From a bacterium (lineage in GTDB: Bacteria; Oederibacteriota; Muellerivitia; Muellerivitales; Muellerivitaceae): a stretch of 28,278 nt of DNA. Positions 1 to 14,699 of this stretch are shown here, piece by piece; the stretch's first letter is position 1; each line of letters begins with the position of its first letter. Location of the stretch: NCBI GenBank assembly GCA_025980505.1, contig JAICXI010000001.1:1-28278 (forward strand). The letters run 5' to 3'. The notes beneath the pieces were generated by a model, which had not been told where the DNA came from, made no database searches, and was given only the letters and a program-made list of their open reading frames with translations. A program made the position numbers and the translations under genes.

Positions 1-410
1 AGGGGGATGGCGAATTGACTTGGCTGGTTCCCACAGGTTCCAAATTGGAAGAGGAAACGGCCCTGGGCGTCGAATTTCTGGACGCGGCAGTTATGCCAAT
101 CCGTGACATAGACGTCCCCCTGCGCGTCCGTGACGGCGTCGATGGGCTCCCGCAATTGGCCCGGTTCCCCGCCCTCGCCGCCCCATTGCAATTGGAACCC
201 ATAGCGGAGGGTGGGTGGCTTCAAGGTCCGCCGTAATGGTTTCGGCGTTTTAGAAGGGGGGGAAGACGGTGGGAGAACCTGTTTTTGCGGTGGCCGGGGC
301 GAAAGGAAGTAACAGGCGCCGAAACCCAGCAGGAAGGCCGCGGTAACCGCCAGTGCCGGCCTCAAGGCCGAAGGACCGCTTTCATGGGGTTCATCCGGAA
401 TAAACCACAT
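1..410 (-). CDS. Membrane-anchored NHL-repeat (beta-propeller) protein, runs off the left edge (3' partial)
   Basis: Hand translation; not in the ORF track. ATG at 410-408 follows GGAGG (CAGGAGGTTGTAT-ATG). Protein: MWFIPDEPHESGPSALRPALAVTAAFLLGFGACYFL (TM), a Pro-rich linker, then WGGEGGEPGQLREPIDAVTDAQGDVYVTDWHNCRVQKFDAQGRFLFQFG, a typical NHL repeat. Confidence 0.85.
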   Translation of the reverse strand, partial: MWFIPDEPHESGPSALRPALAVTAAFLLGFGACYFLSPRPPQKQVLPPSSPPSKTPKPLRRTLKPPTLRYGFQLQWGGEGGEPGQLREPIDAVTDAQGDVYVTDWHNCRVQKFDAQGRFLFQFGTCGNQPSQFAIP

Positions 411-510
411 ATACAACCTCCTGGGCGATACTCAGCGAATCAAAGGAGACTTATCTTTTCAAACGGTTCCCGATGCCCGGTGGACCGTTTTCCGGGAACT
501 TCGGAAGCGG

Positions 511-2580
511 TTAATGAATGGGGACAGGCGTACCACCGCCGGGGATTGGAGAGGATAAAGGTGAGGGCGCGGTACCCTTCCAGGGAATAAAACCGTCGTG
601 GACCAGGCTATGGGCCAGGATCAGGCTGAAGAAAAGGTGGCCTTCGGGGTTGAGGTGGTCGTTGCCCCCAATCTCGGCCAGGGGATAAAAAGAGATGCCC
701 AGGGCCGTTATCTCGTCGTTCAAGTCCAGGAAGGGAATGTGGAACTTCCGGGCCGCATCCACCCAAATCGTCGGGTCTTCCGCGTTGGGCCTGAAGATGC
801 CCGTGTGGGTGGAGCAGAGAAGAAGACGCACAGGTTGGCCGGAAGAGGTTTTCATCGCCGACAATTTGCGGTTCAGGATGTCCAAGGGTTTCCCGTACAT
901 TTCAACCAGCAAGTCGTGAAGCTCGGGCCTGGAGTATAGCGCTTGATTGAAGACGAAGTTGTTGCCTTCGATTTTCACCAGATGGTGTTCCTTGCAAAAG
1001 TCGTAAAACTTCCGCGCCACTCCGTCGGGGATCCTTTGAAGCGGCGGTTTCAACAGGTATTCCATATCGTTGGGATATTTGGGAATGCCTTCGTGCGTCA
1101 TGGGGTTCATGAAGTAGAACTTGAAGGGAAACTCGTCTTCGGGTGTCGGCGGGTCGACGATCAAGACCAAGTCGATATCATCCTTTTGAACGGCGCTCGG
1201 AACCCGGTAGGTCGGCCACAGGAAAAGGGGTTGGGTTGCGGAGGTTCCCGTGTTCATGACCTCGAAGTTCATGGGAGCATCCTCCAGCGCCGCAAGGGCG
1301 TTGAGCTCCGATTCCAACCGCTTGGAATAACGGACCTGGGGCGGGTAATCGCCGAAAGCCTTCACGTTGTAGGAGGTTTGGAAATCATGGCCGACGATCA
1401 TCAAGGATCGGGAATCGCCGACGATCAGGATGCGGAAGGTCCGGGGCGGTTTGGGGGCGGGTGAGTCGATGGCGCCTGCGCCGTCACTTAAATCATAGTT
1501 TCCGGATAAGTCGTGAAATGAAGTCAGCATATTGAAATAAGGGTTGATGATATAAAGCCGCCTCGGCTCCAGGGGATCGGCGACGAATCCGGGAAGGTCC
1601 TCCATGTTCAAATTGCTGAGGGGCAAAAACCAAAGCCCCGGCTGGGGTATCCCATCCCCCCAGACGGTTGTAAAGGAGACGGGATGGTTGTCCGGAAAGA
1701 GCCGTTGGAGGGGAGCCTGGACATCCCTCTGGAGCGCGTAAAGGCAGCCGCCGCTTTGCGCCAAGGCTAAAACGTTGGATCCCGCCGTGACGGCCAGGGA
1801 CGGAGGCGGGGCCGGTCCCGCTCCCGGGGTCCATTTCAACACGAAAACTTTGGGAGTGTCGCGGTCCGACACATACAACTGGTTCCCGGCCGCGCAAAGA
1901 GCGAAGGGATGACCTAAACCATCCTGGGTATTGTTTGGAACCAATATCACTTGGCCTGTCTTCATATCCAATCGCTTTAACGTCATTTGACCGGGTTGGG
2001 TGAAAAAGAGGGAATCGGCTCCGGGCAGGTAGGCCATGTCCCGGATGCCAGCCATGGAAACAGTGTCGGCCAACCCTTCGGCCAAAGTTGTGGGTTTGCT
2101 CCCCGCCAGGGTGGTCACGATTCCGTTTTTCAAGTCGACAAGGCGAAGGAGCTTATTGCCGGTGTCGTTGACCACCAGGCGTTCGCCCGGTAGAAAAACG
2201 ACCCCACTAGGTTGGCCGAAACGGGCTGAGGCCAGGGGACCATCCTGCTTGCCCGGCGCCTCCTGGCCCGTCAACGTGGTCACCCGGTTGTCCTGGTCCA
2301 AGTGGATGACCCGGACCCGGTTGTTGCCCGAATCAGCCACGAAGAGCCGGGTGCCGTCGGAACTGGCGGCCAGGCCGAGGGGTTTATTGAAGTAAGCCGA
2401 AGTGAAACCGCCGTCGCGGAAGCCGGCTGTTCCTTCGCCGGCCACCAGGGCGACGGAAGAGGACACAGGCCGCACAGCTCGGCCTGGCCGGGGGAAGAAA
2501 AAAAAGACTGATAAAAAAACAAAAAAAAACGACTGGGAAAGGCGGTGCCTTTCAAGACTCGTTGAATAATGACGCTTCAT
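511..2580 (-). CDS. Secreted NHL-repeat beta-propeller + C-terminal SGNH-like domain protein (paralog 1)
   Basis: ORF 511-2598; ATG at 2580 preferred but uncertain. Hydrophobic N-terminus; NHL repeats (FNKPLGLAASSDGTRLFVADSGNNRVRVI; FGQPSGVVFLPGERLVVNDTGNKLLRLVD); block I KPPRTFRILIVGDS; C-terminal GNDHLNPEGH. Confidence 0.8.
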   Translation of the reverse strand: MKRHYSTSLERHRLSQSFFFVFLSVFFFFPRPGRAVRPVSSSVALVAGEGTAGFRDGGFTSAYFNKPLGLAASSDGTRLFVADSGNNRVRVIHLDQDNRVTTLTGQEAPGKQDGPLASARFGQPSGVVFLPGERLVVNDTGNKLLRLVDLKNGIVTTLAGSKPTTLAEGLADTVSMAGIRDMAYLPGADSLFFTQPGQMTLKRLDMKTGQVILVPNNTQDGLGHPFALCAAGNQLYVSDRDTPKVFVLKWTPGAGPAPPPSLAVTAGSNVLALAQSGGCLYALQRDVQAPLQRLFPDNHPVSFTTVWGDGIPQPGLWFLPLSNLNMEDLPGFVADPLEPRRLYIINPYFNMLTSFHDLSGNYDLSDGAGAIDSPAPKPPRTFRILIVGDSRSLMIVGHDFQTSYNVKAFGDYPPQVRYSKRLESELNALAALEDAPMNFEVMNTGTSATQPLFLWPTYRVPSAVQKDDIDLVLIVDPPTPEDEFPFKFYFMNPMTHEGIPKYPNDMEYLLKPPLQRIPDGVARKFYDFCKEHHLVKIEGNNFVFNQALYSRPELHDLLVEMYGKPLDILNRKLSAMKTSSGQPVRLLLCSTHTGIFRPNAEDPTIWVDAARKFHIPFLDLNDEITALGISFYPLAEIGGNDHLNPEGHLFFSLILAHSLVHDGFIPWKGTAPSPLSSPIPGGGTPVPIH

Positions 2581-2810
2581 AAAGGCATGGCCTTGCACTG
2601 AGGGTTGATGTCTCTAGGTGAATCCTGGAGAAACAATATTTGGCGAGTTTACCATAACAAACGAAAAGCTTTGAAATAGGACGCCTGGTTTATTTCCGAA
2701 AAGTCATGGGGAGGATAACTCGAACCTCCTTAAAATTCCAAGGCTTCCGAATGAGTTGTGGTAAACTTTGATACATTTTCTAAACCGATCTTACGAAAGT
2801 CGTTTATTTC

Positions 2811-3884
2811 ATGACCTTGACCCGAGACTTCCTGAAGGGGGCCTGCCTCTCCTTTTTCGGCCTCCTGCTATCGGTTGAGATTTTCCTGCGCCTCACCGTC
2901 CCCTCCGGCCTCTGGTACCGCCATTTCGACTTCTCGGGCGACATGACCAGCCGGGCCGAACTGAGGGACCGCCTCCATTACGCCGTTCCGCCCGACCATC
3001 GGGTTCTCCTTTTAGGCGACAGCGTGTTGGGGGCGAGCGCCCTGATGGAACACCGCATTCCCCGGGCCCGGCTCACGACCCTTTCCCGGATTTTACGGGA
3101 AGGGCTCCGGTCGGAAGGTTTCAACGCCTTGAGCCTGGGCTCGGACGGGTTGCTTCTCCCGGACATCGAGGGGCTCACGGCCGAATGGAACGACCCGCAA
3201 CCTGAAAAAATCCTCCTCCTCCTCAATTTCCGAATGTTCTCCAGGGAATTCGCCGAAGGCTTCAAGGCCCTTTCCCGGGACTTCCTTTTAACCGACCTGC
3301 CCGAAGACATCCAAAAAAGACTGGCCCCCGAGACGCCTCCCGGCCAGGAAGCCCGCTTGAGCGACGGCCTGTACCAGGGAATGTGCGACCATTGGGTCCT
3401 TTTCCGGGAAACCCAGGCGGCCAAAACCCTCTGGTATTACCCGAGCCAGAAGGATTTCTTCCAGCGGCTGCTGGAGGGGGTTGTGGGACGCAATGACATG
3501 GAAGCGGACATCCTCGAGGCGGCCTTGAAACAAAAGGTGGCCCCCTATTACCAGGCCTACTCCTGGGATCCCGATGCCTTGCCGCTGACCTGCCTCAAAA
3601 GGATCCTGGATCTTTGGAGCCGGGCCCGCCTGCCGGTGACGGTCGTCTTGACGCCCCAAAACGAGCGGTTCTTGGGGAGCTATCTGGACAAGCCCAGCTT
3701 TCAAAAAAACCGGAAGACTTTGTCGTCCTTCCTGAAGACATACACCCGCCGGGGAATGGTTTACAAAGATTGGTCGGGGAAATACCCCTCTTCCTTTTTC
3801 CTCGACCACTGCCACTTGACGCCCGAGGGCAACCGGCGATATGCCGCGGACCTCCAAGTTCTCTTGGAAGGGAAAGGGCGATGA
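2811..3884 (+). CDS. SGNH-fold acyltransferase/esterase, DltD/AlgJ/PatB-like, N-terminal membrane anchor
   Basis: N-terminal TM (CLSFFGLLLSVEIFL), block I LLGDS and block V FLDHCHL (DxxH) give an intact Ser-Asp-His triad. Coupled to the next genes by ATGA and TAAATG junctions. Confidence 0.8.
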   Translation: MTLTRDFLKGACLSFFGLLLSVEIFLRLTVPSGLWYRHFDFSGDMTSRAELRDRLHYAVPPDHRVLLLGDSVLGASALMEHRIPRARLTTLSRILREGLRSEGFNALSLGSDGLLLPDIEGLTAEWNDPQPEKILLLLNFRMFSREFAEGFKALSRDFLLTDLPEDIQKRLAPETPPGQEARLSDGLYQGMCDHWVLFRETQAAKTLWYYPSQKDFFQRLLEGVVGRNDMEADILEAALKQKVAPYYQAYSWDPDALPLTCLKRILDLWSRARLPVTVVLTPQNERFLGSYLDKPSFQKNRKTLSSFLKTYTRRGMVYKDWSGKYPSSFFLDHCHLTPEGNRRYAADLQVLLEGKGR

Positions 3885-4003
3885 CCCCCGGTGATTTCTG
3901 GAAAGGTTTCGGGATCGGGGTGGTTTTATTCGCCTTGTTCCTTGCCATCCTCCTTTTTTCCGGCGACCTTTCGGCTTCCAAATTCATTTATGTGGATTTT
4001 TAA
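3881..4003 (+). CDS. DltX-like 40-aa membrane peptide with C-terminal FIYxxF acyl-shuttle motif
   Basis: MTPGDFWKGFGIGVVLFALFLAILLFSGDLSASKFIYVDF*. ATG overlaps the upstream TGA, and its TAA abuts the MBOAT ATG. One TM helix; C-terminus matches the DltX-type FIY-x-x-F. Confidence 0.85.
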   Translation: MTPGDFWKGFGIGVVLFALFLAILLFSGDLSASKFIYVDF

Positions 4004-5212
4004 ATGATCTTCAACACCAGCTGGTTCCTTCTCTTTTTCCTCCTCTTTTATTTCTTCCTGTGGCTCATGCCGACGGCCAAGATCCGGTTTTTTTATGCCT
4101 TGGCTTGCAGCGCGGTGTTCCATTACCATTTCGCCGGACCCGCCGGGGTGAAACCCATCATCGTCATGGCGGTCATCACTTTCCTGCTGGCGCTTTGGAT
4201 CGCCCGTTGTCCGGCGGGCGGGCCCCGGAAAAAGTGGGTTTATGGGCTGGCCCTGCTGGTCCCGGTCTCAGGCCTTTTGTTTTACAAATACCGGGCGCTC
4301 TTGTTGGGCTCCCTCGGTTCCCTGGTGGGCGGCGGGGCGGGTAACTGGCTTTCCGCCCACGCCATCCAGCCCGCCATGCCACTGGCCATTTCCTTCTTCA
4401 CCTTCGAGTTCGTGCATTACCTGACGGACGTCTACCACGGCCACGGCGAGCCCGTCCGCAATCCCTTCAAATTCGGCATTTTCTGCATCTTTTTTCCCTC
4501 CATCGTTTCGGGTCCCATCAAGCGGTTCCAACCCTTCCTGGCCCAACTGGAGGAAGGGCTCCGGCGGCCCCCGTTGGAAAAAGCCCTTTTGGGGCTGGCC
4601 CAGGTACTGCTGGGTTTTTTCAAGAAGCTGGTCATCGCCGACAACGCCACGATGACCATCCACCTCCTGGAAAAACGCACGGACCTGACCTCCGGCCCGA
4701 TCTGCCTTTTGATGGCGCTTCTTTCCATCCGGATCCTGTTCGACTTCAGCGGTTATTCGGACATCGCCATCGGCCTGGGCAAGATGATCGGACTCGATCT
4801 GCCGCGGAATTTCAACTTCCCCTACATTTCCAGGAACATCACTGAGTTTTGGCGCCGCTGGCACATGTCGTTGAGCAGCTGGATCCGCGACTACATTTAC
4901 ATCCCCATGGGCGGGAACCGTTATGGAACGGCGCGGAAATTCATGAACCTGATGGTGACCATGTTCGTGTGCGGGCTTTGGCACGGCGCCAGCTGGCACT
5001 TCGGCGTGTGGGGCGTTTACCACGGGGTGGCCCTGGCCGGGCATAACCTGTGGGAAAGATCCGGCCTGGGCCAAAAGTGGGCTTCCCTCCCTTTCAGCCG
5101 GTGGGTGGATGTGGCCGTGACCAACGTTTTCGTGGCTTATGGATGGTTTTTATTTTTTTACCCCCTGGACCAAGTGGCGAAATTTACCGGCCGCCTTTTC
5201 CTATTTCACTAA
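4004..5212 (+). CDS. MBOAT family O-acyltransferase (AlgI/DltB/PatA family)
   Basis: Polytopic; PLAISFFTF, FDFSGYSDIAIG, NFNFPY, EFWRRWHMSLSSWIRDYIYIPMGG, GLWHGA (catalytic His). Confidence 0.95.
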   Translation: MIFNTSWFLLFFLLFYFFLWLMPTAKIRFFYALACSAVFHYHFAGPAGVKPIIVMAVITFLLALWIARCPAGGPRKKWVYGLALLVPVSGLLFYKYRALLLGSLGSLVGGGAGNWLSAHAIQPAMPLAISFFTFEFVHYLTDVYHGHGEPVRNPFKFGIFCIFFPSIVSGPIKRFQPFLAQLEEGLRRPPLEKALLGLAQVLLGFFKKLVIADNATMTIHLLEKRTDLTSGPICLLMALLSIRILFDFSGYSDIAIGLGKMIGLDLPRNFNFPYISRNITEFWRRWHMSLSSWIRDYIYIPMGGNRYGTARKFMNLMVTMFVCGLWHGASWHFGVWGVYHGVALAGHNLWERSGLGQKWASLPFSRWVDVAVTNVFVAYGWFLFFYPLDQVAKFTGRLFLFH

Positions 5213-5226
5213 GCAAGGACTGATCG

Positions 5227-7224
5227 GTGGGATTGATTCGTTTTTCCTTTTCAACCCGGTTCCGGGCCCGGTCGTTGCGCCTCATGGCGGCGGGGATGGC
5301 TTTTCTCCCGGGTCCGCCTTCCTTCGCCTTGACGCCCATGGAGTATTACAACAGCCTTGTGGCGGGAGGCGACGACGCCGGCTTCCGGGACGGGGAGTTT
5401 TACCGGGCGCGGTTCTCCCATCCTTCGGGGCTCGGCCTGGACGGCCCGGGCGATAGAATGTTCGTCGCGGACCGGGACAACCACCGCATCCGTGTGGTTT
5501 ATTTGAACCGGGACAACCGCGTGGAGACGCTGGCGGGGACGGGAACCGCGGGCCGGGAGGATGGGCCGGTTTCCAAAGCCACCTTCAACCAGCCCTCGGC
5601 CCTGGCCTTTATTCCCCCGGACCAATTGGCGGTGTTCGACGCGGGGGACAGGCTGTTGAGGGTGGTCGACCTTCGGGCCGGGAGGGTGTGGACCGTTCCC
5701 CTTGGACCCTTGGGTGGGGTTTGGAACTTGGTTTACGCCCCGCGGGAAGGAAGCCTTTATTTTTCGGAGCCCGCCGAGGGTCTTCTCCAACGGTTGGATT
5801 GGAAGACACAAAAAGTAACGACGGTTTTAAGCGCGAATCCCCAACTGCCCCATCCCCAGGCCCTTTGCCTCCACCAAGACCGGCTTTATGCGGCGGACCG
5901 GGATTTACCCGCGGTTTACCGCATCGATCGCGACGCTTCGTCCCCGCCGGGGAAAGCCGCCGTGAACTGGGTGGAAGTGGGGAAGGGGGACCATATCCAG
6001 GAACTGGCGGGTTCGGTGAGTTTCCTGTACGCCCTCCAGGCCGGCCCCATCCCCCTGGCGCGGATTTTGCCGGAGTCCCGGGCTGTGAGCTTGGCAACAC
6101 CCTGGGGATTCCCGGTGGATAACCAGAATCCGGGGACCGAGCCGCTCTTGAAGTTTGACGGAGGCGCCCCCGTGGGGTTCGCCGCGTCGCCGAACCAGGA
6201 AAGGAAACTTTTTATCTCCTGTCCGGGAGCCGGCCTGCAGGACATCATCAGCGTCAAGGATTACGATTTCGACAAGTGGTGGAAATCCTATTCCCGGTAT
6301 GGGGAACCCACTCCCTTAACCTACCTCACGGATTTTGAATATCCGGCCGCCAAACCCCCCCGGACCTTCCGTATCTTGTTGGTGGGTGAATCCCGCGTCC
6401 TTACGGCGCCCGCCCTGGTGCCGGGGGCGAGCCCTTCCGGCTTCAACGAGCTCCACTGGACCCAGGATACGCTGAGGACGGACACCTTTCCGAAAAAGCT
6501 GGAACTGGGGTTGAACACCGAGGCGTCCCTCCGGGATGGCCCGGTTCATTTTGAGGTTTTGGTCCTTTCCCGCCACGGGTTGGCACCCGGCGCTTACCTT
6601 TATGACGAAGTCCCGCTCTTCGTGAAGCGTTACGACATCGACCTGGTACTCGTGCTGGCGGGAAAAGCGGGATACGAGGATTATTTTGAAAAACCCATCC
6701 GACCGGAGGGTATTCCGGCCCACGATTTGGACCCCGCCTACCTGCTGAAGGCCCTCCCGGCCCGTATCCCGCCCGGAACCCCCGCCCGGTTTTACGGGCT
6801 TTGCCGGCAAAAGGGATTCTTGAAGGATGGCGCGGGATTCCCTTTTTGGTGGGAAATTCTCGATAAGGGGGATGGGGAAATCCGCCGGGACCTGATGGAA
6901 ATGACGGCCAGGCCCCTGCGGCTTTTCGCGGAACGATTGAAGTCCATGAGAACCTCCACCGGCTCCGTACCCCGGTTGGCGTTCTTTTACGTCCCTTGGC
7001 GGGATTGGGGTCCCCAGGACAAATGCGAAGCTTTTTGGGACGACCTTTGCCGGGAAAACCACCTGGGCATGCTGGACTTGAGCGATTCCTTCAACGCGTT
7101 GAAGACGGGTTTTTATCCCATCAACCAGCCCAACTGCATGCGCCACTATACGGCCGAGGGGGGGAATGTGTTGATCGCCCGGATTTTAGGTTACTATTTG
7201 ATGAAGCAAGGGTGGGTTCCCTAG
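5227..7224 (+). CDS. Secreted NHL-repeat + SGNH-like domain protein (paralog 2)
   Basis: Signal-like N-terminus ending SFA|LTPM (start codon uncertain); NHL repeats (FSHPSGLGLDGPGDRMFVADRDNHRIRVV); KPPRTFRILLVGES; C-terminal MRHYTAEGG. Confidence 0.8.
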   Translation: MGLIRFSFSTRFRARSLRLMAAGMAFLPGPPSFALTPMEYYNSLVAGGDDAGFRDGEFYRARFSHPSGLGLDGPGDRMFVADRDNHRIRVVYLNRDNRVETLAGTGTAGREDGPVSKATFNQPSALAFIPPDQLAVFDAGDRLLRVVDLRAGRVWTVPLGPLGGVWNLVYAPREGSLYFSEPAEGLLQRLDWKTQKVTTVLSANPQLPHPQALCLHQDRLYAADRDLPAVYRIDRDASSPPGKAAVNWVEVGKGDHIQELAGSVSFLYALQAGPIPLARILPESRAVSLATPWGFPVDNQNPGTEPLLKFDGGAPVGFAASPNQERKLFISCPGAGLQDIISVKDYDFDKWWKSYSRYGEPTPLTYLTDFEYPAAKPPRTFRILLVGESRVLTAPALVPGASPSGFNELHWTQDTLRTDTFPKKLELGLNTEASLRDGPVHFEVLVLSRHGLAPGAYLYDEVPLFVKRYDIDLVLVLAGKAGYEDYFEKPIRPEGIPAHDLDPAYLLKALPARIPPGTPARFYGLCRQKGFLKDGAGFPFWWEILDKGDGEIRRDLMEMTARPLRLFAERLKSMRTSTGSVPRLAFFYVPWRDWGPQDKCEAFWDDLCRENHLGMLDLSDSFNALKTGFYPINQPNCMRHYTAEGGNVLIARILGYYLMKQGWVP

Positions 7225-7286
7225 GAAACCTATCCAAGCTGCGGATCGTCGGAAGAGTATATCGGTTCATTTTAAGGAGGCGCTCA

Positions 7287-7805
7287 TTGAAGAAACTATT
7301 ATTGGTGATGGGGATGTTTTTGACTTCAGTACCCATCTTCGCCCAAGAGACCCCTGCGGCGTCGACTTACTTGGCGGCTCCCACGCCGGCCGCCAGCCCC
7401 CTGTCCCGGGTCATTCCAAAATGGAGCATGTCGGCGGTGCCTTGGGACGCATGGTTCAAGGACAACGCCATGGTCACGGACAAGACCGACTATGTCCATT
7501 TCTTCTGGAATGCCCAGGACTTCAAGGCCAACTTCGAGGTGAAGGAGAAAAAGAAGAGACTGGCGGAGGCCGCCCTTCAACTGGTGTCGCGTCTTTACCC
7601 GTCGGATGCCAAGGCCGACTTAGTGAAGGTGGATATCGTGTATGTCCTGGAAAGGGATGTCTATGGCCAACCCAAGTGGGACAGCCTCCAACAAGTGGCC
7701 CACTTGGAATTCTTGCGGTCCAAGGACTCCAAGCTAGCTAAAACCAAAAAGGAACCCTCCGACGAAGCGCTCCAAAAAGCTTTTGACAAGTTCGATTTAT
7801 TTTAA
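7287..7805 (+). CDS. Secreted hypothetical protein, 172 aa
   Basis: TTG start at 7287 after AAGGAGG (7274-7280); signal peptide MKKLLLVMGMFLTSVPIFA|QE; Ala/Pro linker. Stop overlaps the next ATG (TAATG). The 6996 start in the ORF track overlaps the upstream gene and is rejected. Confidence 0.8.
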   Translation: MKKLLLVMGMFLTSVPIFAQETPAASTYLAAPTPAASPLSRVIPKWSMSAVPWDAWFKDNAMVTDKTDYVHFFWNAQDFKANFEVKEKKKRLAEAALQLVSRLYPSDAKADLVKVDIVYVLERDVYGQPKWDSLQQVAHLEFLRSKDSKLAKTKKEPSDEALQKAFDKFDLF

Positions 7806-9772
7806 TGAAAATTATTTTATTTTTAATCCTGATTTGGTTTCCGACGATGAGCTGCTGGGCGCTGTCGCCCATGCAAAGCTTCCAGGACTTGGTGGCGGGT
7901 GAAGGAACCGATGGATTGAAAGATGGGCCTTTTTATTCGGCACTTTTTCATTCACCCACGGGATTGGCTCTTAATTCCAACGGAAGCAAGTTATATGTCG
8001 CCGATCGGGAAAACAACTGCATCCGGGTTGTAGACCTGGCCGCAGGAAACTATGTTTCCACTTTAACGGGCTGTCTTGAGGCGGGCTATTTGGATGGGCC
8101 CCTTTCCAAGGCACGGTGGAATGGACCCATTGGGTTGATTTACCTGCCGGGTGACCGCTTGGTGGTCAATGATACGGGCAACAAGAGGATCCGAGAGATC
8201 GATTTGCAGGAAAAAACGGTTCAAACGTTGGCTGGAAACGGTCAAACAGGACTCCAAGATGGAAAGGGTCTTCAAAATCCGTTGGGGCCCATTTGGAGCA
8301 TGGCTTACCTTCCCGCCCAAGATTCGGTTTATTTCACCCAGCCAGATTTTAAGGCACTCCGGCGGTTGAAATTGGGAAGCGGGGAAGTTTCGACTGTCTT
8401 TTCGGAGGAGCCACGGCTTCCCCGTCCCACGGCCCTTTTTGTCATGGACGAAAAAATCTATATCGCCGAAGGCGATGAGGGGCAGGTTTACGAACTCATT
8501 CCCCATGACAAGGTTGAAAAAATCGACGCGAGTGCTTTTGATTGGGTGTCTCTGGGAAAGGGCGGGAAGATATTGTGCCTTGCGGGTTCGGACGGGACTT
8601 TGTACGCCTTGCGTACCGATGAGCATTTCCCTTTGGTTCGGTTTTCACCTCAAGCAACTCCGGTGGGCCTTTTGACCGTTTGGGGGGGCCCAATCCAAGA
8701 TTCACTCTCCGGGACTTTCTTTAAGGATGTTTTATCCCCTTCGCCCATGGCCATGGTTGTCGATCCCCGTACGCCGCACAAATTTTATATCGCCCACCCT
8801 CTTTTAAATATTGTGACTTCTTTCCGTGACCTGTGTTTGACCGAACGGGGTGGACTTTGGAATTTAAACAAGGGAGGGCTTACCGACTTTGATTACCCTT
8901 TTTCAAAACCGCCGGGGGTATACCGTATTCTTCTGGTGGGCGATTCCCACATCATGACAATTGCGGGACAAGGACCAACGCTCTCCGTTTTCAAGGCGAA
9001 TATGGAGACGCTGGCCAAAAGGATGGAGCTGATGCTTAATACCCTCGCGGCCATGGAAGACCTACCAACCCGTTTTGAGGTGCTGACGGATGGGAGAGTT
9101 GCCGGCGAAGTCTTAAATCTGTGGCCCTATTATTCCGTTCCTGCGATCGCACAGAAGTACGATATTGACACAGTGCTTTTTTGTTTGACGCCTAACTACA
9201 CCGATTACGTGTATTTTCTCAGGCCTTTAACGAAGGAAGGTATTCCTTCCGAAAAGGACGACCCTGAATATATTTTAAAGCCGATCCAGGATAGGATTCC
9301 GGAAGGATTGCCGCGCCGATTTATCGAACTTTGTCAGGCAAAAAATTTGGTATCTATTGAGGGAAACCAATTTCATTTCTCTCCATTGGCGGATCTGGTT
9401 CAAGATTCCCAAATAAGAAAGTGTATGGTCGATCTCTATAGCCGCCCCTTGAAGTTACTGAAGGAAAAACTGGCTTCTCAAAAGACATCCGGCGGACATG
9501 CCGGAAATTTGGATATCTGTTTGATACCTTGGGCAAAATTTTACCCTTTTGAAAAGGAAAAACCCTTTTGGGAAGACGTACTCAAGGAAGTCGGAGGACC
9601 CTCCACGGATCTTTCCGACCTTTTGACGGCCTTTCGTGTTAGTTTTTATCCTCTTTCGGAGATAGATGGGAACGATCATTACACCGCCGAAGGACAGGGG
9701 CTGATTGCTTTTGTGTTGACCCAGGAATTGATTCGCCAGAAACTCTTTCCTTTTTCATCCTCTCAAAAATGA
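7805..9772 (+). CDS. Secreted NHL-repeat + SGNH-like domain protein (paralog 3)
   Basis: Signal peptide MKIILFLILIWFPTMSCWA|LSPM; NHL repeats (FHSPTGLALNSNGSKLYVADRENNCIRVVD); KPPGVYRILLVGDS; GNDHYTAEG. Confidence 0.85.
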   Translation: MKIILFLILIWFPTMSCWALSPMQSFQDLVAGEGTDGLKDGPFYSALFHSPTGLALNSNGSKLYVADRENNCIRVVDLAAGNYVSTLTGCLEAGYLDGPLSKARWNGPIGLIYLPGDRLVVNDTGNKRIREIDLQEKTVQTLAGNGQTGLQDGKGLQNPLGPIWSMAYLPAQDSVYFTQPDFKALRRLKLGSGEVSTVFSEEPRLPRPTALFVMDEKIYIAEGDEGQVYELIPHDKVEKIDASAFDWVSLGKGGKILCLAGSDGTLYALRTDEHFPLVRFSPQATPVGLLTVWGGPIQDSLSGTFFKDVLSPSPMAMVVDPRTPHKFYIAHPLLNIVTSFRDLCLTERGGLWNLNKGGLTDFDYPFSKPPGVYRILLVGDSHIMTIAGQGPTLSVFKANMETLAKRMELMLNTLAAMEDLPTRFEVLTDGRVAGEVLNLWPYYSVPAIAQKYDIDTVLFCLTPNYTDYVYFLRPLTKEGIPSEKDDPEYILKPIQDRIPEGLPRRFIELCQAKNLVSIEGNQFHFSPLADLVQDSQIRKCMVDLYSRPLKLLKEKLASQKTSGGHAGNLDICLIPWAKFYPFEKEKPFWEDVLKEVGGPSTDLSDLLTAFRVSFYPLSEIDGNDHYTAEGQGLIAFVLTQELIRQKLFPFSSSQK

Positions 9773-9775
9773 TTT

Positions 9776-9823
9776 CCTTCCGCAGAACTCCAAAAAATTT
9801 TTGACAAGTTTGATATTTTCTGA
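9776..9823 (+). pseudogene. Relic second copy of the 3' end of the 172-aa gene
   Basis: Reads PSAELQKIFDKFDIF* versus PSDEALQKAFDKFDLF* of the 7287-7805 gene; 9789-9823 vs 7771-7805 match at 28/35 nt by manual alignment. Confidence 0.75.
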
Positions 9824-9982
9824 AGGTTAAATCTTTAAATTTCCCTACAAATGAGGCTATTTTCCAGGTTATTTAATTAGGAAATCGGTATCCTTTTGAA
9901 TACAATCTCCACCTAGCCGGTCGAGTTGCTTTATTGCCCTATCAATGACCCGCCCGAATTGATTCATCCCAAGGAGATTGAT

Positions 9983-11287
9983 ATGAAATTTAGAATTTTA
10001 GGAGTAATCCTCCTCCTGGCCGGGTCTTCCATTCTGATGATCGGTTGCCCCGGCAGCAGTCCCAGTTCCCCCGCAGCCCCCACGGCGACGCCCACCTTCA
10101 CGAACACGGTCTGCATGAACGCCAGCGGCACGCCTTGTACTTCCACGCCGACTTTCACCTTCACGGATACGGCCACGGCCACGGATACGGTGACGGATAC
10201 GGCCACGGGCACGCCGACCCATACGGCTACCGCCACTTATACCCGGACGGAAACGGGTACGCCGACGGATACGGCGACATCCACGGCGACCGGTACGCCG
10301 ACGAACACGGCGACCGTAACCGACACCCCCACGGTCACCCCTACTCCAACCGATACCTTAAGCCCCACGCCGACGGGCTCCGATACGCCCACTTTTACGG
10401 CCACCTCCACGGTCACTTTCACCCCAACGCGGACGGCCACGGACACCGCCACAGCCACCAACACGGTCTTCTCATGCGCGTCCACCGATACCTTCACCCC
10501 GACGCCTTCCGGCGGCAATTCCATTTCCGTGACCGTGCACGTGACGGGCGGGACGATCAACGCTTCCCATCCTGTTTTTGTCCATGTGGACAACACCTCC
10601 CTGGGAAGCCCGACGACCTCGTTTGAGGGAAACGCGAACATCCTATCCAATAACGGCGTCAATAAGTTCACCGGAATTCCGTCGGGTAGTGACGCCAGCT
10701 GCATTGTGGCGGCTTTCTTTGACCCCGCCAATGCGATCAACCCTTATAAGGCCGATCATGGCGGCGACATCAATGTGGGGGGGTATTTTGTGGGCTGGAA
10801 CGGGTCCTCCACCGGCACCTGCAGTTTCGGTTCCCTGACGGCGGTCACCGCTTCCAGCAGCGCGGGAGTGTCCCTTTACCTTGGAACCACTTGCGTGGTA
10901 AACGGCTTAAGCGGCGCCTTGTCCTACACCGGGAGCGGAACGGTGGATAACTGCCGGTCGATCGTTGTGCAGATTTCCACCGGCGGACCCTCTTTTTCGA
11001 ACTTCAACGCCGGGATGGTGACCAATGGGATTAGCACGCCTTTCGCCACTACCTCCGGCAATTCCCAAAGGTATGACATCATTCCCAATAACCAGTACAT
11101 CGGGGGAGGGGACCCAACGTCTTATTACATCAGGGCCTATTATGATTCCAACGCGACCGGAGGTTGGTCCAACCCGCCTTCCGCGGGGGAGCCTTGCAAA
11201 CAGTTGACGGGGACCTTTACCACCTCCAGCGCGCAACAAGCGGGGTTAAACATCACCTTCAGCGATACGGATAGTTGCGGTAATTAA
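9983..11287 (+). CDS. Lipoprotein with Thr-rich (TxT/TPT) stalk and Cys-containing beta-rich C-terminal region (paralog A)
   Basis: AAGGAG at 9971-9976 and ATG at 9983; lipobox-like ILMIG|C22; long Thr-alternating tract; Gly/Ser/Thr/Asn-rich C-terminal region. Confidence 0.85.
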
Positions 11288-11297
11288 TACCAAGGTT

Positions 11298-11334
11298 AAA
11301 GGCCCGGTTCCTATTGAGGAGCCGGGCCTTTTTT
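11298..11334 (+). terminator. Rho-independent terminator
   Basis: AAAGGCCCGGTTCCT-ATTG-AGGAGCCGGGCCTTT followed by a T run. Confidence 0.9.
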
Positions 11335-11741
11335 GTTTGTGAAGCCGGTTAAGGCCCGCAGTCTTTAAGAAAAACCTTTTGGACCCACCTTCCAATCGCT
11401 AGGCCGACATCCTTTCGCCTTAACTATTCTTGGCAGCCGTCCCTATTCCATAGCCCCTCGCGGAAAGTTTTTCCTTCCGTGATCGAACGAAAAGGGGTTT
11501 TAAACATTCACTTCCAAATTGGATGTAATTTCCTCACGGAAATAAACGTTGAAAATGGAATGTTTCTTTCGGCCGCCGCCACTGCTCCATCCCCGCCTCA
11601 CCCCTAATTTCCACCCCCGGGGTTGATATTACTTTGGAAAGAAGCCGGGGATAATCCTTTGGGTTAAAGGAAAACATCAGGTTGCCGCCGGTCCCTTGAG
11701 GTAGGCCCCAACCCTTCCATTCAAATCCCAAGGAGAAACTT

Positions 11742-12968
11742 ATGAAAGTTCGCTTGTTTGGAGCCTTTTCACTTCTCGCTTTTGCCTCCATCCTGGTCAC
11801 CGGCTGTCCCGGCAACAGTCCCACTTCCCCGGCGGCACCCACCGCCACCTTCACCTTTACCGATACGCCCTGCATGAATGCCGGCGGCACGCCCTGCACC
11901 TCCACGCCAACCTTCACGGACACGGATACGGCCACGGACACGGCCACCGGCACGCCGACCAGCACCGGGACCAGCACCTATACCAGGACCTTCACCTTTA
12001 CGGCCACCGATACGGCCACCGCCACTTCCACGGGGACGCCGACCAGTACGCCCACGGTTACCGATACCCCGACCATCACGGATACGCCGACCGAGACCTT
12101 GAGCCCCACCCCGACGGGTTCGGATACGGCGACCTTCACGCGAACCAGCACGCCTTCGTCGACACCAACCAAAACATCAACCAATACACCTGTCGTGCCG
12201 ACCAACACGGCTACCCTGTGTCCCACCCAAAGCTTCACGCCGACCCCCCTTGCTAACGGCTATTCCATCTCGGGAAGCGTCGGTTTTTCGGGAACTGGGG
12301 TGAACGGATCCCACCCCCTCCAAGTCGTGGCTTTTGATACGAATGGAAACAATGGAAACCCCTACGACCTGGTGACCACCAACAACAGTTCCTATACAAT
12401 CCAGGGACTTTCGGCGGGCGCCACTTATATGGTTGTGGCCTTCTTCAACCCCTCCGTCACCGGGTTTAGCTGGCCCCCGGCGCTGGGCAGCTATGCCGCG
12501 ATGTATGGGACCTCCTCCTGCACCGTCAGCCTTGCGTCGCCCATCATCGTGAGCGGTGCCATGACCAGCAAGAACGTCACGATTGGGACCGCCAATCTCA
12601 TCAACGGTTACGGCGGGACCGCCAGTTACAGCGGAAGCTTGGGACGCGTGGATGGGTGCCATGGAATCATCGTCGAGCTTTTCCCGACCGGCACGACGCT
12701 TTACGGCGCTTCCAACAGCGTTACGGCCGTCAGCAGCAACAACGACGCCTATGTGCAAACCAACGGAGGGAGTTTCACCCTGGTGGGGGGCAAGGGCGGC
12801 GGTAACGCCTGCGCCGGCCAAACGGTGAACATCCTGGCCTACTATAACGCGGGGACAGGGGGCTGTTGCGGCATCCAGTCCGGCGACCCCTATGTGTTCC
12901 TGCAAAACCAGGCTTCCGGCACCTCGCCGAGCCTCACGATCAGCCTGACGGATTCCCAAACTTATTGA
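11742..12968 (+). CDS. Lipoprotein with Thr-rich stalk (paralog B)
   Basis: AAGGAG RBS; ILVTG|C22; same [16 protein letters not shown]...CMNAxGTPC N-terminus as paralog A; divergent C-terminal region. Confidence 0.85.
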   Translation: MKVRLFGAFSLLAFASILVTGCPGNSPTSPAAPTATFTFTDTPCMNAGGTPCTSTPTFTDTDTATDTATGTPTSTGTSTYTRTFTFTATDTATATSTGTPTSTPTVTDTPTITDTPTETLSPTPTGSDTATFTRTSTPSSTPTKTSTNTPVVPTNTATLCPTQSFTPTPLANGYSISGSVGFSGTGVNGSHPLQVVAFDTNGNNGNPYDLVTTNNSSYTIQGLSAGATYMVVAFFNPSVTGFSWPPALGSYAAMYGTSSCTVSLASPIIVSGAMTSKNVTIGTANLINGYGGTASYSGSLGRVDGCHGIIVELFPTGTTLYGASNSVTAVSSNNDAYVQTNGGSFTLVGGKGGGNACAGQTVNILAYYNAGTGGCCGIQSGDPYVFLQNQASGTSPSLTISLTDSQTY

Positions 12969-12992
12969 ACCGGGCGAAAGAACGGGTTTTAC

Positions 12993-13023
12993 AAAGCCCG
13001 GGCCGAAAGGCCCGGGCTTTTTT
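12993..13023 (+). terminator. Rho-independent terminator
   Basis: Perfect 12-bp stem AAAGCCCGGGCC-GAAA-GGCCCGGGCTTT plus T run. Confidence 0.9.
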
Positions 13024-13051
13024 ATTTGGGTTTTTCACGGTCGGATGTTCC

Positions 13052-13080
13052 TTGAAATGGGCCTTTTTTCCGAATAAACT
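13052..13080 (+). promoter_or_regulatory. Sigma70-type promoter for tRNA-Val
   Basis: TTGAAA-N17-TAAACT followed by a GC-rich stretch, 41 nt upstream of the tRNA. Confidence 0.6.
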
Positions 13081-13121
13081 ACGTCCCCCAAAGGGCGGGT
13101 CCGCCCGCGCTTGACGACCTT

Positions 13122-13198
13122 GGACATTTAGCTCAGCTGGTTAGAGCGTCGCGTTCACATCGCGAAGGTCACTGGTTCGAGTCCAGTAATGTCCACCA
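13122..13198 (+). tRNA. tRNA-Val (anticodon CAC)
   Basis: 77-nt cloverleaf: acceptor GGACATT/AATGTCC, D stem GCTC/GAGC, anticodon arm TCGCG-TTCACAT-CGCGA, T arm ACTGG-TTCGAGT-CCAGT, encoded CCA. Confidence 0.98.
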
Positions 13199-13201
13199 TC
13201 C

Positions 13202-13239
13202 AAACCCGTACTTCCCGTTAGGGAAGTACGGGTTTTTTT
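13202..13239 (+). terminator. Rho-independent terminator after tRNA-Val
   Basis: Perfect 15-bp stem AAACCCGTACTTCCC-GTTA-GGGAAGTACGGGTTT plus T run. Confidence 0.9.
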
Positions 13240-13267
13240 ATTGGGACAGGACTGGAGGAGAACCAGG

Positions 13268-13342
13268 AAGGGGTATGGGGAAGGCTTCCCCATGCCGTTG
13301 AAAGGGGTCCACAGGGGGGATTTCCCCTGTGGGAGCGAAGCG
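13268..13342. repeat. Double-hairpin REP-like element, copy A
   Basis: AAGGGGTATGGGGAAGGCTTCCCCATGCCGTTGAAAGGGGTCCACAGGGGGGATTTCCCCTGTGGGAGCGAAGC aligns end to end with 19739-19806. Confidence 0.75.
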
Positions 13343-13343
13343 A

Positions 13344-13368
13344 GGTTCGATGTCCGTCATGGCCACCA
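13344..13368 (+). repeat. Degenerate duplicate of the tRNA-Val 3' end (att-like relic)
   Basis: GGTTCGATGTCCGTCATGGCCACCA vs tRNA 13174-13198 GGTTCGAGTCCAGTAATGTCCACCA: 19/25 ungapped. Confidence 0.6.
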
Positions 13369-13457
13369 CCTGAACCGCCCTCCCCGGAAGAAGAGGAGCG
13401 GTTTTTGGTTGGGAGGGATGCCAACCTGACACTTCTCATGGTCCATCCGCCGCCCTC

Positions 13458-13466
13458 TGCTACAAT
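13458..13466 (+). promoter_or_regulatory. Extended -10 promoter, probably giving a leaderless SRAP mRNA
   Basis: TG-C-TACAAT ends 6 nt before ATG 13473; no Shine-Dalgarno sequence. Confidence 0.5.
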
Positions 13467-13472
13467 ACCCGC

Positions 13473-14156
13473 ATGTGCTCGCGATTCGTCCTTAAAAGCA
13501 CCTCGAAAACCGTCGCCCGCTTGCTCCAATTGGAGAAAACCCTCGATTGGAAACCCCGCTATAACGTGGCGCCTTCCCAGAAGATCCCGGCGGTCCTCCG
13601 TCCCTTGGGCAACAAGCAACGGGAGATGAAGCTTCTGCAGTGGGGGTTCGTGGCTTCCTGGACCCAGGGCGGGAGGCTTTTGGTGAACGTGCAAAGCGAG
13701 AACATCGGCGAGAAACCCCTCTTGGCCGAATCCTTTGAGAAGTGGCGCTGCCTCATTCCCGCTTTTTACGAGTGGCGGCACGAAGCCAGGGAAACCCGGC
13801 CCTACTATATCCGGATGAAGGACGGGCAACCTTTCGCTTTGGCCGGTTTATGGGCCCCCCAAAAATTGGAGGACAAGACGCTGGAAGTCTGCGCCATCCT
13901 GACCACCACGCCCAACGAAGTGGTGCGGGTGGTCCACGACCGGATGCCGGTGATCGTGGGCCCCCGGCATTACGACCTGTGGCTCAATTCGGAGGATGTG
14001 CGGGATTTCCGGGAGATCGAAAAGCTCTTCCGCCCTTACCCGGCAGACGGGATGGAAGTCCGCCAGGTAAGCGCCTGGGTCAACAACGTCGCGCATGACG
14101 ACGAGAAATGCATCGAGCCGTCCAACGAGCCCGAAACGATGTCCTTCGACTTCTAA
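13473..14156 (+). CDS. SOS response-associated peptidase (SRAP/YedK/HMCES family), abasic-site protecting protein
   Basis: N-terminal MCSRF (Cys2), RYNVAPSQ, FYEW, FALAGLW, HDRMPVI. Confidence 0.92.
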   Translation: MCSRFVLKSTSKTVARLLQLEKTLDWKPRYNVAPSQKIPAVLRPLGNKQREMKLLQWGFVASWTQGGRLLVNVQSENIGEKPLLAESFEKWRCLIPAFYEWRHEARETRPYYIRMKDGQPFALAGLWAPQKLEDKTLEVCAILTTTPNEVVRVVHDRMPVIVGPRHYDLWLNSEDVRDFREIEKLFRPYPADGMEVRQVSAWVNNVAHDDEKCIEPSNEPETMSFDF

Positions 14157-14231
14157 ACAGGCCCTTCAATAACCCAAACCCGCTGGGCTCGCGGCGGCGC
14201 CTTTGGCATTCCCAAGGCGGCTTGGAAAATC

Positions 14232-14699
14232 CTATTTCCGGTTTCCACGGAAGACGGCGGAATTGTCGGGCGTTTCCCAAAGCCCCACTTCGGCCAAGCG
14301 GACCTTCTCCCTTTGGAGGGACGGCTCCAACAGCTTCCAAATGACCTGGGCCATGTTTTCAGCGGTGGGTTGGAAAGCCGGGTTGGTTTTAAAAGGCTCC
14401 ACTTCCTTGTTGATGAAACGGTGGTCGAAGCGGGCGAAAACCTCCCTTTTCAGGATCTCCTTCAGCACGCGGAAATCCATCACGAACCCCGTGGAGGGGT
14501 CCACCCGCCCCCGCACCGCCACCCTCAGCCGGTAGGAATGGCCGTGGGGATAATGGGAGGCCTTGGGGTCGTCCTTGCGGTAACCCGAGCATTTCCGGAA
14601 GACCTCCAGGTTCTTGGCGCGGTCCCATTTTGGATTATGCAGGTAATGGGCGGCCTCGAAGGTGATTTCCTTGGCGATTTCAGCTGGAATTTTTTCCAT
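14232..14699 (-). CDS. queD: 6-carboxytetrahydropterin / 6-pyruvoyl-tetrahydropterin synthase (QueD/PTPS family)
   Basis: ATG at 14699 after GAGG; FEAAH, C...HGHSY, DPSTGFVMDF, PTAENMA, VGLWETP. Confidence 0.85.
   Translation of the reverse strand: MEKIPAEIAKEITFEAAHYLHNPKWDRAKNLEVFRKCSGYRKDDPKASHYPHGHSYRLRVAVRGRVDPSTGFVMDFRVLKEILKREVFARFDHRFINKEVEPFKTNPAFQPTAENMAQVIWKLLEPSLQREKVRLAEVGLWETPDNSAVFRGNRK

Follow-up and report, generated by a model that had tools for sequence, protein, structure and literature searches.

The locus

The subject of this report is a gene cluster on contig JAICXI010000001.1, within a stretch of 28,278 nucleotides (the window) from the assembly of a 2.44-Mb metagenome-assembled genome (MAG) that is 65% complete and belongs to an uncultured bacterium of candidate phylum FCPU426. 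At its centre is a single compact block on the forward strand, 2811-9772, comprising genes for a DltD-like protein of SGNH type, a microprotein of 40 residues, a membrane-bound O-acyltransferase (MBOAT), a protein in which an NHL propeller is joined to an SGNH-like domain (fusion B), a secreted protein of 172 residues (S172) and a second such fusion (C); a third, fusion A, is encoded divergently, upstream of the block. Judged from its gene content, the block is most likely one predicted operon, the products of which would acylate an envelope molecule in a diderm bacterium, at the periplasmic face of its inner membrane. A candidate envelope acylation system had been proposed at this position from a reading of the letters alone (the original prediction in what follows), and the gene set it described is real, in that all the genes listed were recovered as open frames with the same coordinates or nearly so. 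The features of most concern here are the following.

2811-3884, forward strand: DltD-like membrane-anchored SGNH protein, 357 residues (fold match to DltD using AlphaFold2 and Foldseek; motif residues)
3881-4003, forward strand: DltX-like single-helix microprotein, 40 residues, ending KFIYVDF, presumed acyl-tyrosine shuttle (conserved C-terminal motif)
4004-5212, forward strand: DltB-type MBOAT, 402 residues, ending RLFLFH (Pfam MBOAT, TIGR04091, DltB sequences in the PDB)
5227-7224, forward strand: NHL fusion B, 665 residues, with signal peptide, NHL beta-propeller and C-terminal SGNH-like domain with Ser389 and His640 (AlphaFold2, profiles)
7287-7805, forward strand: S172, 172-residue secreted protein, unnamed fold (ribosome-binding site and TTG start; conservation in core loci)
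7805-9772, forward strand: NHL fusion C, 655 residues, a compositional outlier (full-length match to the family profile)
9789-9823, forward strand: degenerate duplicate of the 3' end of S172, a putative recombination or cassette scar (28/35 identity to 7771-7805)
511-2598, reverse strand: NHL fusion A, 695 residues, 213 nt from the start of the DltD-like gene (full-length family match, 760 bits)

The start codon of the microprotein overlaps the stop codon of the DltD-like gene by 4 nt (ATGA), its own stop abuts the ATG of the MBOAT gene, and the ATG of fusion C shares 1 nt with the stop of S172, which itself starts at a TTG lying 6 nt after AAGGAGG and has a signal-peptide-like N-terminus. No strong terminator-like sites were found between 2811 and 9983.

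A probable relay core of Dlt type

The MBOAT matches the corresponding Pfam family with E 6e-27. Its best NCBIfam model is DltB (TIGR04091, E 1.6e-56 over positions 7-376 of 380, at 192 bits as against a cut-off of 375 bits), and the closest PDB sequences are likewise DltB (6bug/8jem, E 1e-31). It has no C-terminal FxYxxF motif; longer MBOATs (471-533 residues) of related loci carry one of their own (EFLYFRF, SFIYFQF or AFIYFQF), and a second MBOAT in the host (contig C204:1441-2856, reverse strand; 471 residues, ending AFIYFQF) is of this fused-motif type. In the Dlt system it is DltB that loads the tyrosine of DltX, which then hands the acyl group to the serine of DltD (PMC12148441, citing Schultz et al. 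2023), while non-Dlt MBOAT/SGNH pathways lack a DltX-like microprotein, the motif being carried by the MBOAT itself (the 2025 PatAB paper in JBC, PMC12148441). Since an MBOAT without the motif, accompanied by a free microprotein, is what that paper describes for Dlt, the core in the window is Dlt-type in architecture, not AlgI-type; the label "AlgI-type" given to the MBOAT in the original prediction has to be replaced by DltB-type, in view of its length of 402 residues, the missing fused motif and the solved structures nearest to it.

The microprotein consists of one hydrophobic helix with FxYxxF at its extreme C-terminus. Pfam DltX (PF12459) does not match it, and it is annotated as a gene in one relative. 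Among the loci fetched there are 27 distinct orthologues, from two phyla, every one of which ends in [GA][DE]LS.S.F[IL]Y[VA]DF and lies between the same two genes; such recurrence, with a near-invariant C-terminus, makes the pattern at the locus more than chance.

Matters are less direct for the DltD-like protein, for which there was no Pfam or NCBIfam match (nothing usable even at E<=10, and Pfam DltD, PF04914, does not match), while a PDB search with its sequence gave only noise. Its AlphaFold2 model, made with 40 homologues, has a mean predicted local distance difference test score (pLDDT) of 90.9, and in a Foldseek search of the PDB the top ten matches are all DltD (6pfx, 3bma, 6o93, 7dxm; E 3e-7 to 2e-4), generic SGNH esterases starting only at rank 11; the TM-score with DltD is, however, only about 0.42. 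Across the 40 homologues Gly69-Asp70-Ser71, Gly113 and Asn139 are invariant and Asp332-His-Cys-His335 nearly so, and a transmembrane helix at the N-terminus (residues 5-32) would serve as membrane anchor. Named relatives of the gene occur in MAGs of candidate division FCPU426 and of Firestonebacteria and, at a greater distance, in Thermoanaerobaculia and Holophagales (Acidobacteriota). In one protein collection the family bears the label PF27429 (LB_356), which is unconfirmed and of which no literature mention was found. The relay suggested originally, made up of an MBOAT, a free tyrosine-motif peptide and a DltD-like SGNH protein, is supported by the coupling of the genes, by the fold match to DltD and by the 27 orthologues of the microprotein. 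As a separate observation, in one FCPU426 MAG (L027:10001-12449) the DltD-like gene and the MBOAT gene are each broken into two frames, which may reflect either pseudogenisation or frameshift errors of long-read sequencing.

The NHL fusions

Three NHL-SGNH paralogues had been noted in the window, two downstream of the MBOAT and one divergent, and all three prove to be full-length members of one family: fusions A, B and C, as well as a fourth host copy on contig C212, match a single profile of 664 positions from end to end. The family counts over 110 full-length homologues, none of which has a name. Each of the fusions in the window has a Pfam NHL match (E 1.6e-10, 4e-6 and 4e-9), and in the AlphaFold2 model of fusion B (pLDDT 89.1) residues ~40-345 form the NHL propeller; using this model, Foldseek returned NHL-repeat propellers (NHLRC2, TRIM71, Brat) together with designed six-bladed propellers, with E down to 2e-16 and a target TM-score of up to 0.82. 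The N-terminus of fusion A is signal-peptide-like.

For the C-terminal half there was no Pfam or NCBIfam match even at E<=10, and a PDB search with a profile of the domain gave noise. It is accepted here as SGNH-like, with a putative Ser/His site, on indirect evidence of several kinds. In an alignment of 40 fusion sequences, Gly387 and Ser389 of block I are present in 40/40 and His640 of block V in 38/40, and Asp472, Asp617 and Glu443 are conserved residues that could act as alternatives to other canonical ones. The C-terminal ~300 residues of the fusion B model show the same order of strands and helices as the DltD-like model, including the helical insert after strand 3. When the fusion and DltD-like profiles were compared using hhalign the matches were weak (E 4e-3 and 4e-4), but collinear, with the Ser and His motifs aligned, and in the ESM Atlas the neighbours of the C-terminal part are GDSL/SGNH (lipase/acylhydrolase) clusters, at 0.95. 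Out of 1.84 billion cluster representatives a profile of this domain picked up 345, and the full-length ones are almost without exception 620-700 residues long, with the domain at the C-terminus.

Conservation of the gene set

The split core, that is, the form in which the motif is on a free microprotein, occurs in 26 of 99 genomes of the host's phylum. Twenty of these (the host included) fall in the host's family, and all 20 have fusions; a fusion lies no more than 5 kb from the split core in 12 of the 20 and within ~10 kb in 14, while two further cases are cut by contig ends. Numbers of fusions per genome run from 1 to at least 12, pseudogenised copies included, with four known in the host; since 12 candidates were scored per genome, these copy numbers are to be taken as minima. 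Five further genomes of the family match the fusion profile without having the split core; G063 matches its NHL part only. If one counts both the split core and the second type of MBOAT module described in the next section, 23 of the 24 genomes of the family with complete fusions hold a module, while the other six or seven family genomes have neither a module nor a complete fusion (0/6); being relatives, these genomes do not give independent counts. Of 151 sampled Thermoanaerobaculia genomes two have a core, and it is these two that have a fusion, a single copy lying in each case directly downstream of the MBOAT. Two more acidobacterial loci have the same gene order, and in one genome the core and the fusion are on different contigs.

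At the level of the genome, then, the fusions are tied to MBOAT modules, and at the level of the locus the association is frequent, not obligatory. Co-occurrence in gene neighbourhoods had been set in the original prediction as a test of its idea, and in the host's family all genomes with complete fusions but one are found to hold an MBOAT module.

The secreted protein S172 was mentioned in the original prediction simply as "a secreted protein"; it is present, but was under-rated. Clustering of the neighbours of 22 core loci gave the DltD-like protein in 22, the MBOAT in 21, S172 in 17 and fusions in 13, and S172 always lies downstream of the MBOAT (directly after it in ten loci, after the first fusion in six). 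Not one of the 129 homologues of S172 bears a name or a Pfam domain, and the host assembly has a single copy of the gene; searches of Pfam and NCBIfam gave no match even at E<=10, and the ESM Atlas returned only unnamed clusters, at 0.87 or below. Going by this conservation, S172 is a fourth, conserved component of the core. Whether it might act as an adaptor in the manner of AlgF is a matter of speculation, by analogy.

A second module and composite proteins

Some relatives have a different module (type 2), made up of an MBOAT of 531-533 residues that ends EFLYFRF, a protein of 338-350 residues with weak similarity to DltD/DUF1574, and an NHL fusion. Examples are L021:5197-9845, L027:16-6113 and L050 (G070:C111) 8640-14429. 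The type-2 MBOAT is present in 9 of 31 genomes of the family, all of which have fusions, and a fusion adjoins it in ~6; in the host assembly, 65% complete as it is, the type-2 module was not found. In genome G070 (98% complete, 7 fusions) a single contig carries the 533-residue MBOAT ending EFLYFRF, a 350-residue DltD-like protein (a weak match), an S172 homologue and a fusion.

More telling are cases where the two SGNH-type units are covalently joined. In a Myxococcota MAG the next gene after a 475-residue fused-motif MBOAT encodes a protein of 1119 residues (L037:9779-13138), residues 74-354 of which match the DltD-like profile (hmmsearch E 1.6e-23), while residues 370-801 match the fusion profile over the propeller and on through the Gly-x-Ser block into those after it (hhalign probability 96.9%, E 2e-10). 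Proteins of 1039-1126 residues that match the DltD-like profile are also encoded beside fused-motif MBOATs in a Planctomycetota MAG (L040:9680-12799) and in another MAG (L042:9860-13240); the L042 protein matches NHL repeats as well, and in both of these the propeller/SGNH-like unit is putative. In a Desulfobacteraceae locus the three genes are separate. The occurrence of a DltD-like and a putative propeller/SGNH-like unit in one polypeptide, next to an MBOAT, is the strongest argument for a joint function, and these architectures would speak for a recurrent design with two consecutive SGNH-type steps.

Lineages of fusions and traces of recombination

The three fusions in the window are 33-41% identical to one another. 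A FastTree phylogeny of 27 copies, which was read without support values, places six of the seven copies lying directly downstream of an MBOAT in one clade, including fusion B, with copies from other positions nested within it; the seventh such copy, from an acidobacterial locus, falls elsewhere in the tree. Fusion C clusters with copies located after S172 elsewhere, and fusion A with copies of L020 and L025 that lie upstream or close by. The three paralogues in the window represent three ancient lineages, and in other genomes members of each occupy the corresponding position.

It had been suggested in the original prediction that the NHL domains select different acceptors. This finds no specific support, as the two halves have diverged to a similar extent: mean pairwise identity across the family is 39.5% for the propeller as against 35.9% for the catalytic half, so that the propeller is not diverging the faster.

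Fusion C has a GC content at third codon positions (GC3) of 0.52, compared with 0.70-0.84 for the other full-length genes tabulated, and it is followed by the duplicate of the S172 3' end, which still reads ...LQKIFDKFDIF-stop. On the strength of these two features the sequence fits a replacement of fusion C, as allele or cassette, by recombination with a foreign allele. Elsewhere, a fusion remnant of 114 residues that matches only the last 50 positions of the profile lies just after the MBOAT at L013:12291-12635. Decayed fusions were also seen in which one copy has five in-frame stops and another is split into pieces (G055:C4:941854-943538; L032:14868-18096).

Comparison with known systems

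In the host as in its relatives, LpxC and BamA exceed their cut-off scores, from which it follows that the host is diderm. With lipopolysaccharide (LPS) genes present in a diderm host, teichoic acid is an unlikely acceptor (teichoic acid genes themselves were not searched for). The original prediction had remarked on the absence of dltA/dltC, alg and wss genes from the window; there is indeed no Pfam match to any of these there, and neither DltA (TIGR01734, over its cut-off) nor DltC (TIGR01688, at E<=0.01) was found in the host genome (subject to its completeness of 65%) or in four relatives. Nor is any ligase or carrier gene to be found among the conserved neighbours of core loci. A true Dlt pathway was accordingly rejected: the Pfam DltX and DltD models are unmatched, nothing in the five genomes scored as DltA over its cut-off or as DltC, the conserved neighbours include neither a ligase nor a carrier gene, and the host is diderm.

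Even so, the DltX-DltB-DltD system of Bacillota, which forms the extracytoplasmic half of their pathway for D-alanylation of teichoic acid, is in several respects the closest parallel. It shares with the window a short MBOAT lacking a fused motif, a separate single-helix FxYxxF microprotein and an anchored SGNH protein (here best matching DltD), and the three genes are adjacent and translationally coupled. The differences are that the window has the gene order D-X-B, a diderm host and no DltA or DltC (across five genomes), that its MBOAT reaches only half of the DltB cut-off score, and that there are additional conserved partners, namely the NHL/SGNH-like fusions and S172. The DltX papers that were found describe DltX in Gram-positive bacteria only.

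In alginate O-acetylation (AlgI-AlgJ-AlgF-AlgX) and the related WssFGHI system, the shuttle motif is carried by AlgI, and the soluble periplasmic protein AlgX follows the anchored AlgJ. The likeness lies in the combination of an MBOAT, an anchored SGNH-like protein, a soluble periplasmic SGNH-like protein with a substrate-binding module, and a small accessory protein. In the window, however, the motif is on a free peptide, an NHL propeller takes the place of a carbohydrate-binding module, there are no polymer synthase genes nearby, and the soluble enzyme has been expanded, to four known copies in the host and at least 12 in relatives. Pfam ALGX and AlgF had no match among the proteins of the system.

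PatA works by an acyl-tyrosine mechanism, its motif being fused on two additional helices (PMC12148441). PatA-PatB, the system for peptidoglycan O-acetylation in Gram-negative bacteria, resembles the proposed one as a periplasmic relay from acyl-Tyr to acyl-Ser in a diderm, for which acyl-CoA is the probable donor; it differs in that the window has an MBOAT of 402 residues without fused motif and an SGNH partner that is DltD-like in fold. The type-2 module of the relatives, with its 531-residue MBOAT ending EFLYFRF, is closer to the PatA pattern than is the core in the window.

The architecture had not been recognised as a named pathway in the original prediction, and the literature search bears this out: no paper was found that combines MBOAT, SGNH and NHL, or that describes this exact gene set. 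What the present analysis adds is the co-occurrence counts, the type-2 module, the composite proteins of other phyla, the finding that the paralogue lineages keep their positions at the locus, and the place of S172 as a member of the core.

A proposed mechanism and its alternatives

From gene content, conservation, the DltD-like fold, the catalytic residues, the genomic coupling and the composite proteins, we infer a scheme in which every chemical step is to be read as provisional, as are donor and acceptor and the question whether the fusions transfer or hydrolyse. The 402-residue MBOAT would take an acyl group from a cytoplasmic donor, which, given that DltA and DltC are absent, would probably be acyl-CoA or a housekeeping carrier protein; it would then esterify the C-terminal tyrosine of the free microprotein (FIYVDF), and the microprotein would hand the acyl group on to Ser71 of the anchored DltD-like protein. 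The secreted NHL-propeller/SGNH-like proteins would form a soluble second stage, much as AlgX does after AlgJ, their conserved Ser/His site handling the acyl group while the propeller holds the substrate, and S172 would be an accessory subunit. By analogy with the systems discussed above, this reading as a whole (a periplasmic relay from MBOAT to peptide tyrosine to DltD-like serine, with the propeller/SGNH-like proteins as soluble second stage and S172 as accessory) is given a probability of about 0.6. The acceptor may be peptidoglycan, LPS or exopolysaccharide. A further elaboration, tentative and on balance rather doubtful, is that one membrane station (with S172 possibly as adaptor) serves many propeller-SGNH enzymes, each with an acceptor of its own, so that exchange of cassettes, as may have happened with fusion C, would re-pattern the surface.

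Several observations weigh against this scheme. Homology to Dlt exists at the level of fold and motif only, since Pfam DltD and DltX are unmatched. The fusions lack the conserved block III Asn after strand 3 as well as the Asp of the DxxH motif (the position three before the His is variable), and the Foldseek search with the full fusion model gave propellers only, leaving the SGNH fold unsupported there; it is because propellers dominated the matches that the fold could not be confirmed in this way. The fusions bear signal peptides and have no membrane anchor of the DltD-like kind, so that their route to the relay is not evident. Four core-bearing genomes of the family show no fusion on the contig of the core, or none within ~140 kb of it, and one genome, 84% complete, has two fusions with no module detected. 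Polymer-synthesis genes are absent nearby, which means that the acceptor cannot be named from the neighbours. Finally, a tally of coordinates puts ~70% of fusion copies away from any core locus. It is on account of this dispersal, and of the second, fused-motif MBOAT module that pairs with fusions, that the original idea of one relay feeding several fusions is upheld only in part: the fusions are linked to MBOAT modules, but a single relay for all of them is not established.

Some of these same points would suit an arrangement in which the core is an acyl relay but the fusions are esterases that remove or edit acyl marks. A precedent exists in Ape1, an SGNH esterase of peptidoglycan O-acetylation loci that is encoded beside patA/patB. 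Soluble, signal-peptide-bearing proteins without an anchor of DltD type, with a Ser/His site from which the usual oxyanion Asn and the Asp of DxxH are missing, whose ESM Atlas neighbours are GDSL lipase/acylhydrolase clusters and most copies of which are dispersed, as would suit stand-alone hydrolases, are all in keeping with such a role. SGNH transferases and esterases are, however, indistinguishable by sequence, and that one polypeptide should carry both a propeller/SGNH-like unit and a transferase domain of DltD-like kind suggests consecutive steps in the same direction, not opposing activities; an esterase role is judged unlikely, though still to be reckoned with.

It might also be supposed that the fusions are functionally independent of the relay and that the locus is a recombination hot spot at which surface-protein cassettes gather. 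The deviant GC3 of fusion C and the duplicated gene end beside it, the remnant after the MBOAT in L013, the range of copy numbers from one to at least 12 with pseudogenised copies among them, and the four core-bearing genomes without a fusion within reach would all fit; yet adjacency repeats in two phyla and with two types of MBOAT module, co-occurrence is 23/24 as against 0/6, position is conserved within the paralogue lineages, and both units are joined in single proteins of distant lineages, all of which makes this idea highly improbable. Hardly better placed is the possibility that the specific acceptor is the glycans of the Thr-rich lipoproteins encoded next to the system. Two genes for such lipoproteins do follow the operon, similar genes come after the core in L013, L014 and L018, and a PMT_2-type glycosyltransferase is encoded upstream in seven related loci. 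Against this, Thr-rich neighbours are confined to 4 of 22 loci, all from close relatives, the acidobacterial loci showed none, the lipoprotein genes have strong terminators of their own, and at least 19 Thr-rich open reading frames (ORFs) are scattered over the 65%-complete genome.

MBOAT-SGNH relays are the general bacterial means of acylating envelope polymers, and the marks they leave influence how well cells withstand lysozyme, cationic peptides and phages. The split design with a free shuttle, called peculiar to Gram-positive Dlt in the literature, appears here in diderms without D-alanine loading enzymes, at no fewer than 27 orthologous loci in FCPU426 and Acidobacteriota, accompanied by two families of partner proteins for which no function has been described (the propeller/SGNH-like enzymes and the 17-kDa secreted protein S172). 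With the composite proteins there is a concrete model, open to experiment, in which the acyl group would change hands a second time in the periplasm.

Neighbouring genes

Beyond the block the window contains three further genes of some relevance.

9983-11287, forward strand: Thr-rich putative lipoprotein 1, a weakly linked neighbour (lipobox-like LMIGC)
11742-12968, forward strand: Thr-rich putative lipoprotein 2, a weakly linked neighbour (lipobox-like LVTGC)
3-416, reverse strand: N-terminal part of a generic NHL-repeat protein, running off the window (Pfam NHL, E 8e-7)

Both Thr-rich lipoprotein genes exist as described originally, each with its lipobox-like motif. Their products contain stretches with 47-49% Thr (lipoprotein 1 reaches 49% in an 80-residue window) and match no Pfam or NCBIfam family even at E<=10. 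Strong terminators lie 3' of both genes (at 11298-11331 after lipoprotein 1 and at 12993-13020 after lipoprotein 2), as also of tRNA-Val. The Thr-rich ORFs of the host genome (at least 35% Thr over 80 residues) are found on 19 contigs and include large NHL-repeat proteins on contigs C184, C231 and C153, and it seems that Thr-rich linkers characterise this organism's secreted proteins generally. In view of this scatter, of the terminators and of the low count of comparable genes near core loci, the link of the lipoproteins to the system is weak; they are probably not part of it, and the suggestion in the original prediction that their glycans might be an acceptor is correspondingly weak.

The "fourth NHL protein" of the original prediction is present at 3-416 on the reverse strand, but stands outside the fusion family. 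It was considered as a possible member and rejected, as it has one NHL repeat and its hhalign comparison with the fusion profile gave E 0.32. The remaining genes of the window are housekeeping genes (SRAP, NadE, lipoate ligase, LpdA, RF3), and PADLOC gave no defence-system match.

In L009, L013, L015, L016, L022, L025 and L032 a set of genes lies divergently upstream of the core, consisting of two SQS_PSY genes, an amine-oxidase-like gene and the PMT_2-type glycosyltransferase gene. This set is squalene/hopanoid-like and recurs in 7-8 related loci; in the window its place is taken by fusion A.

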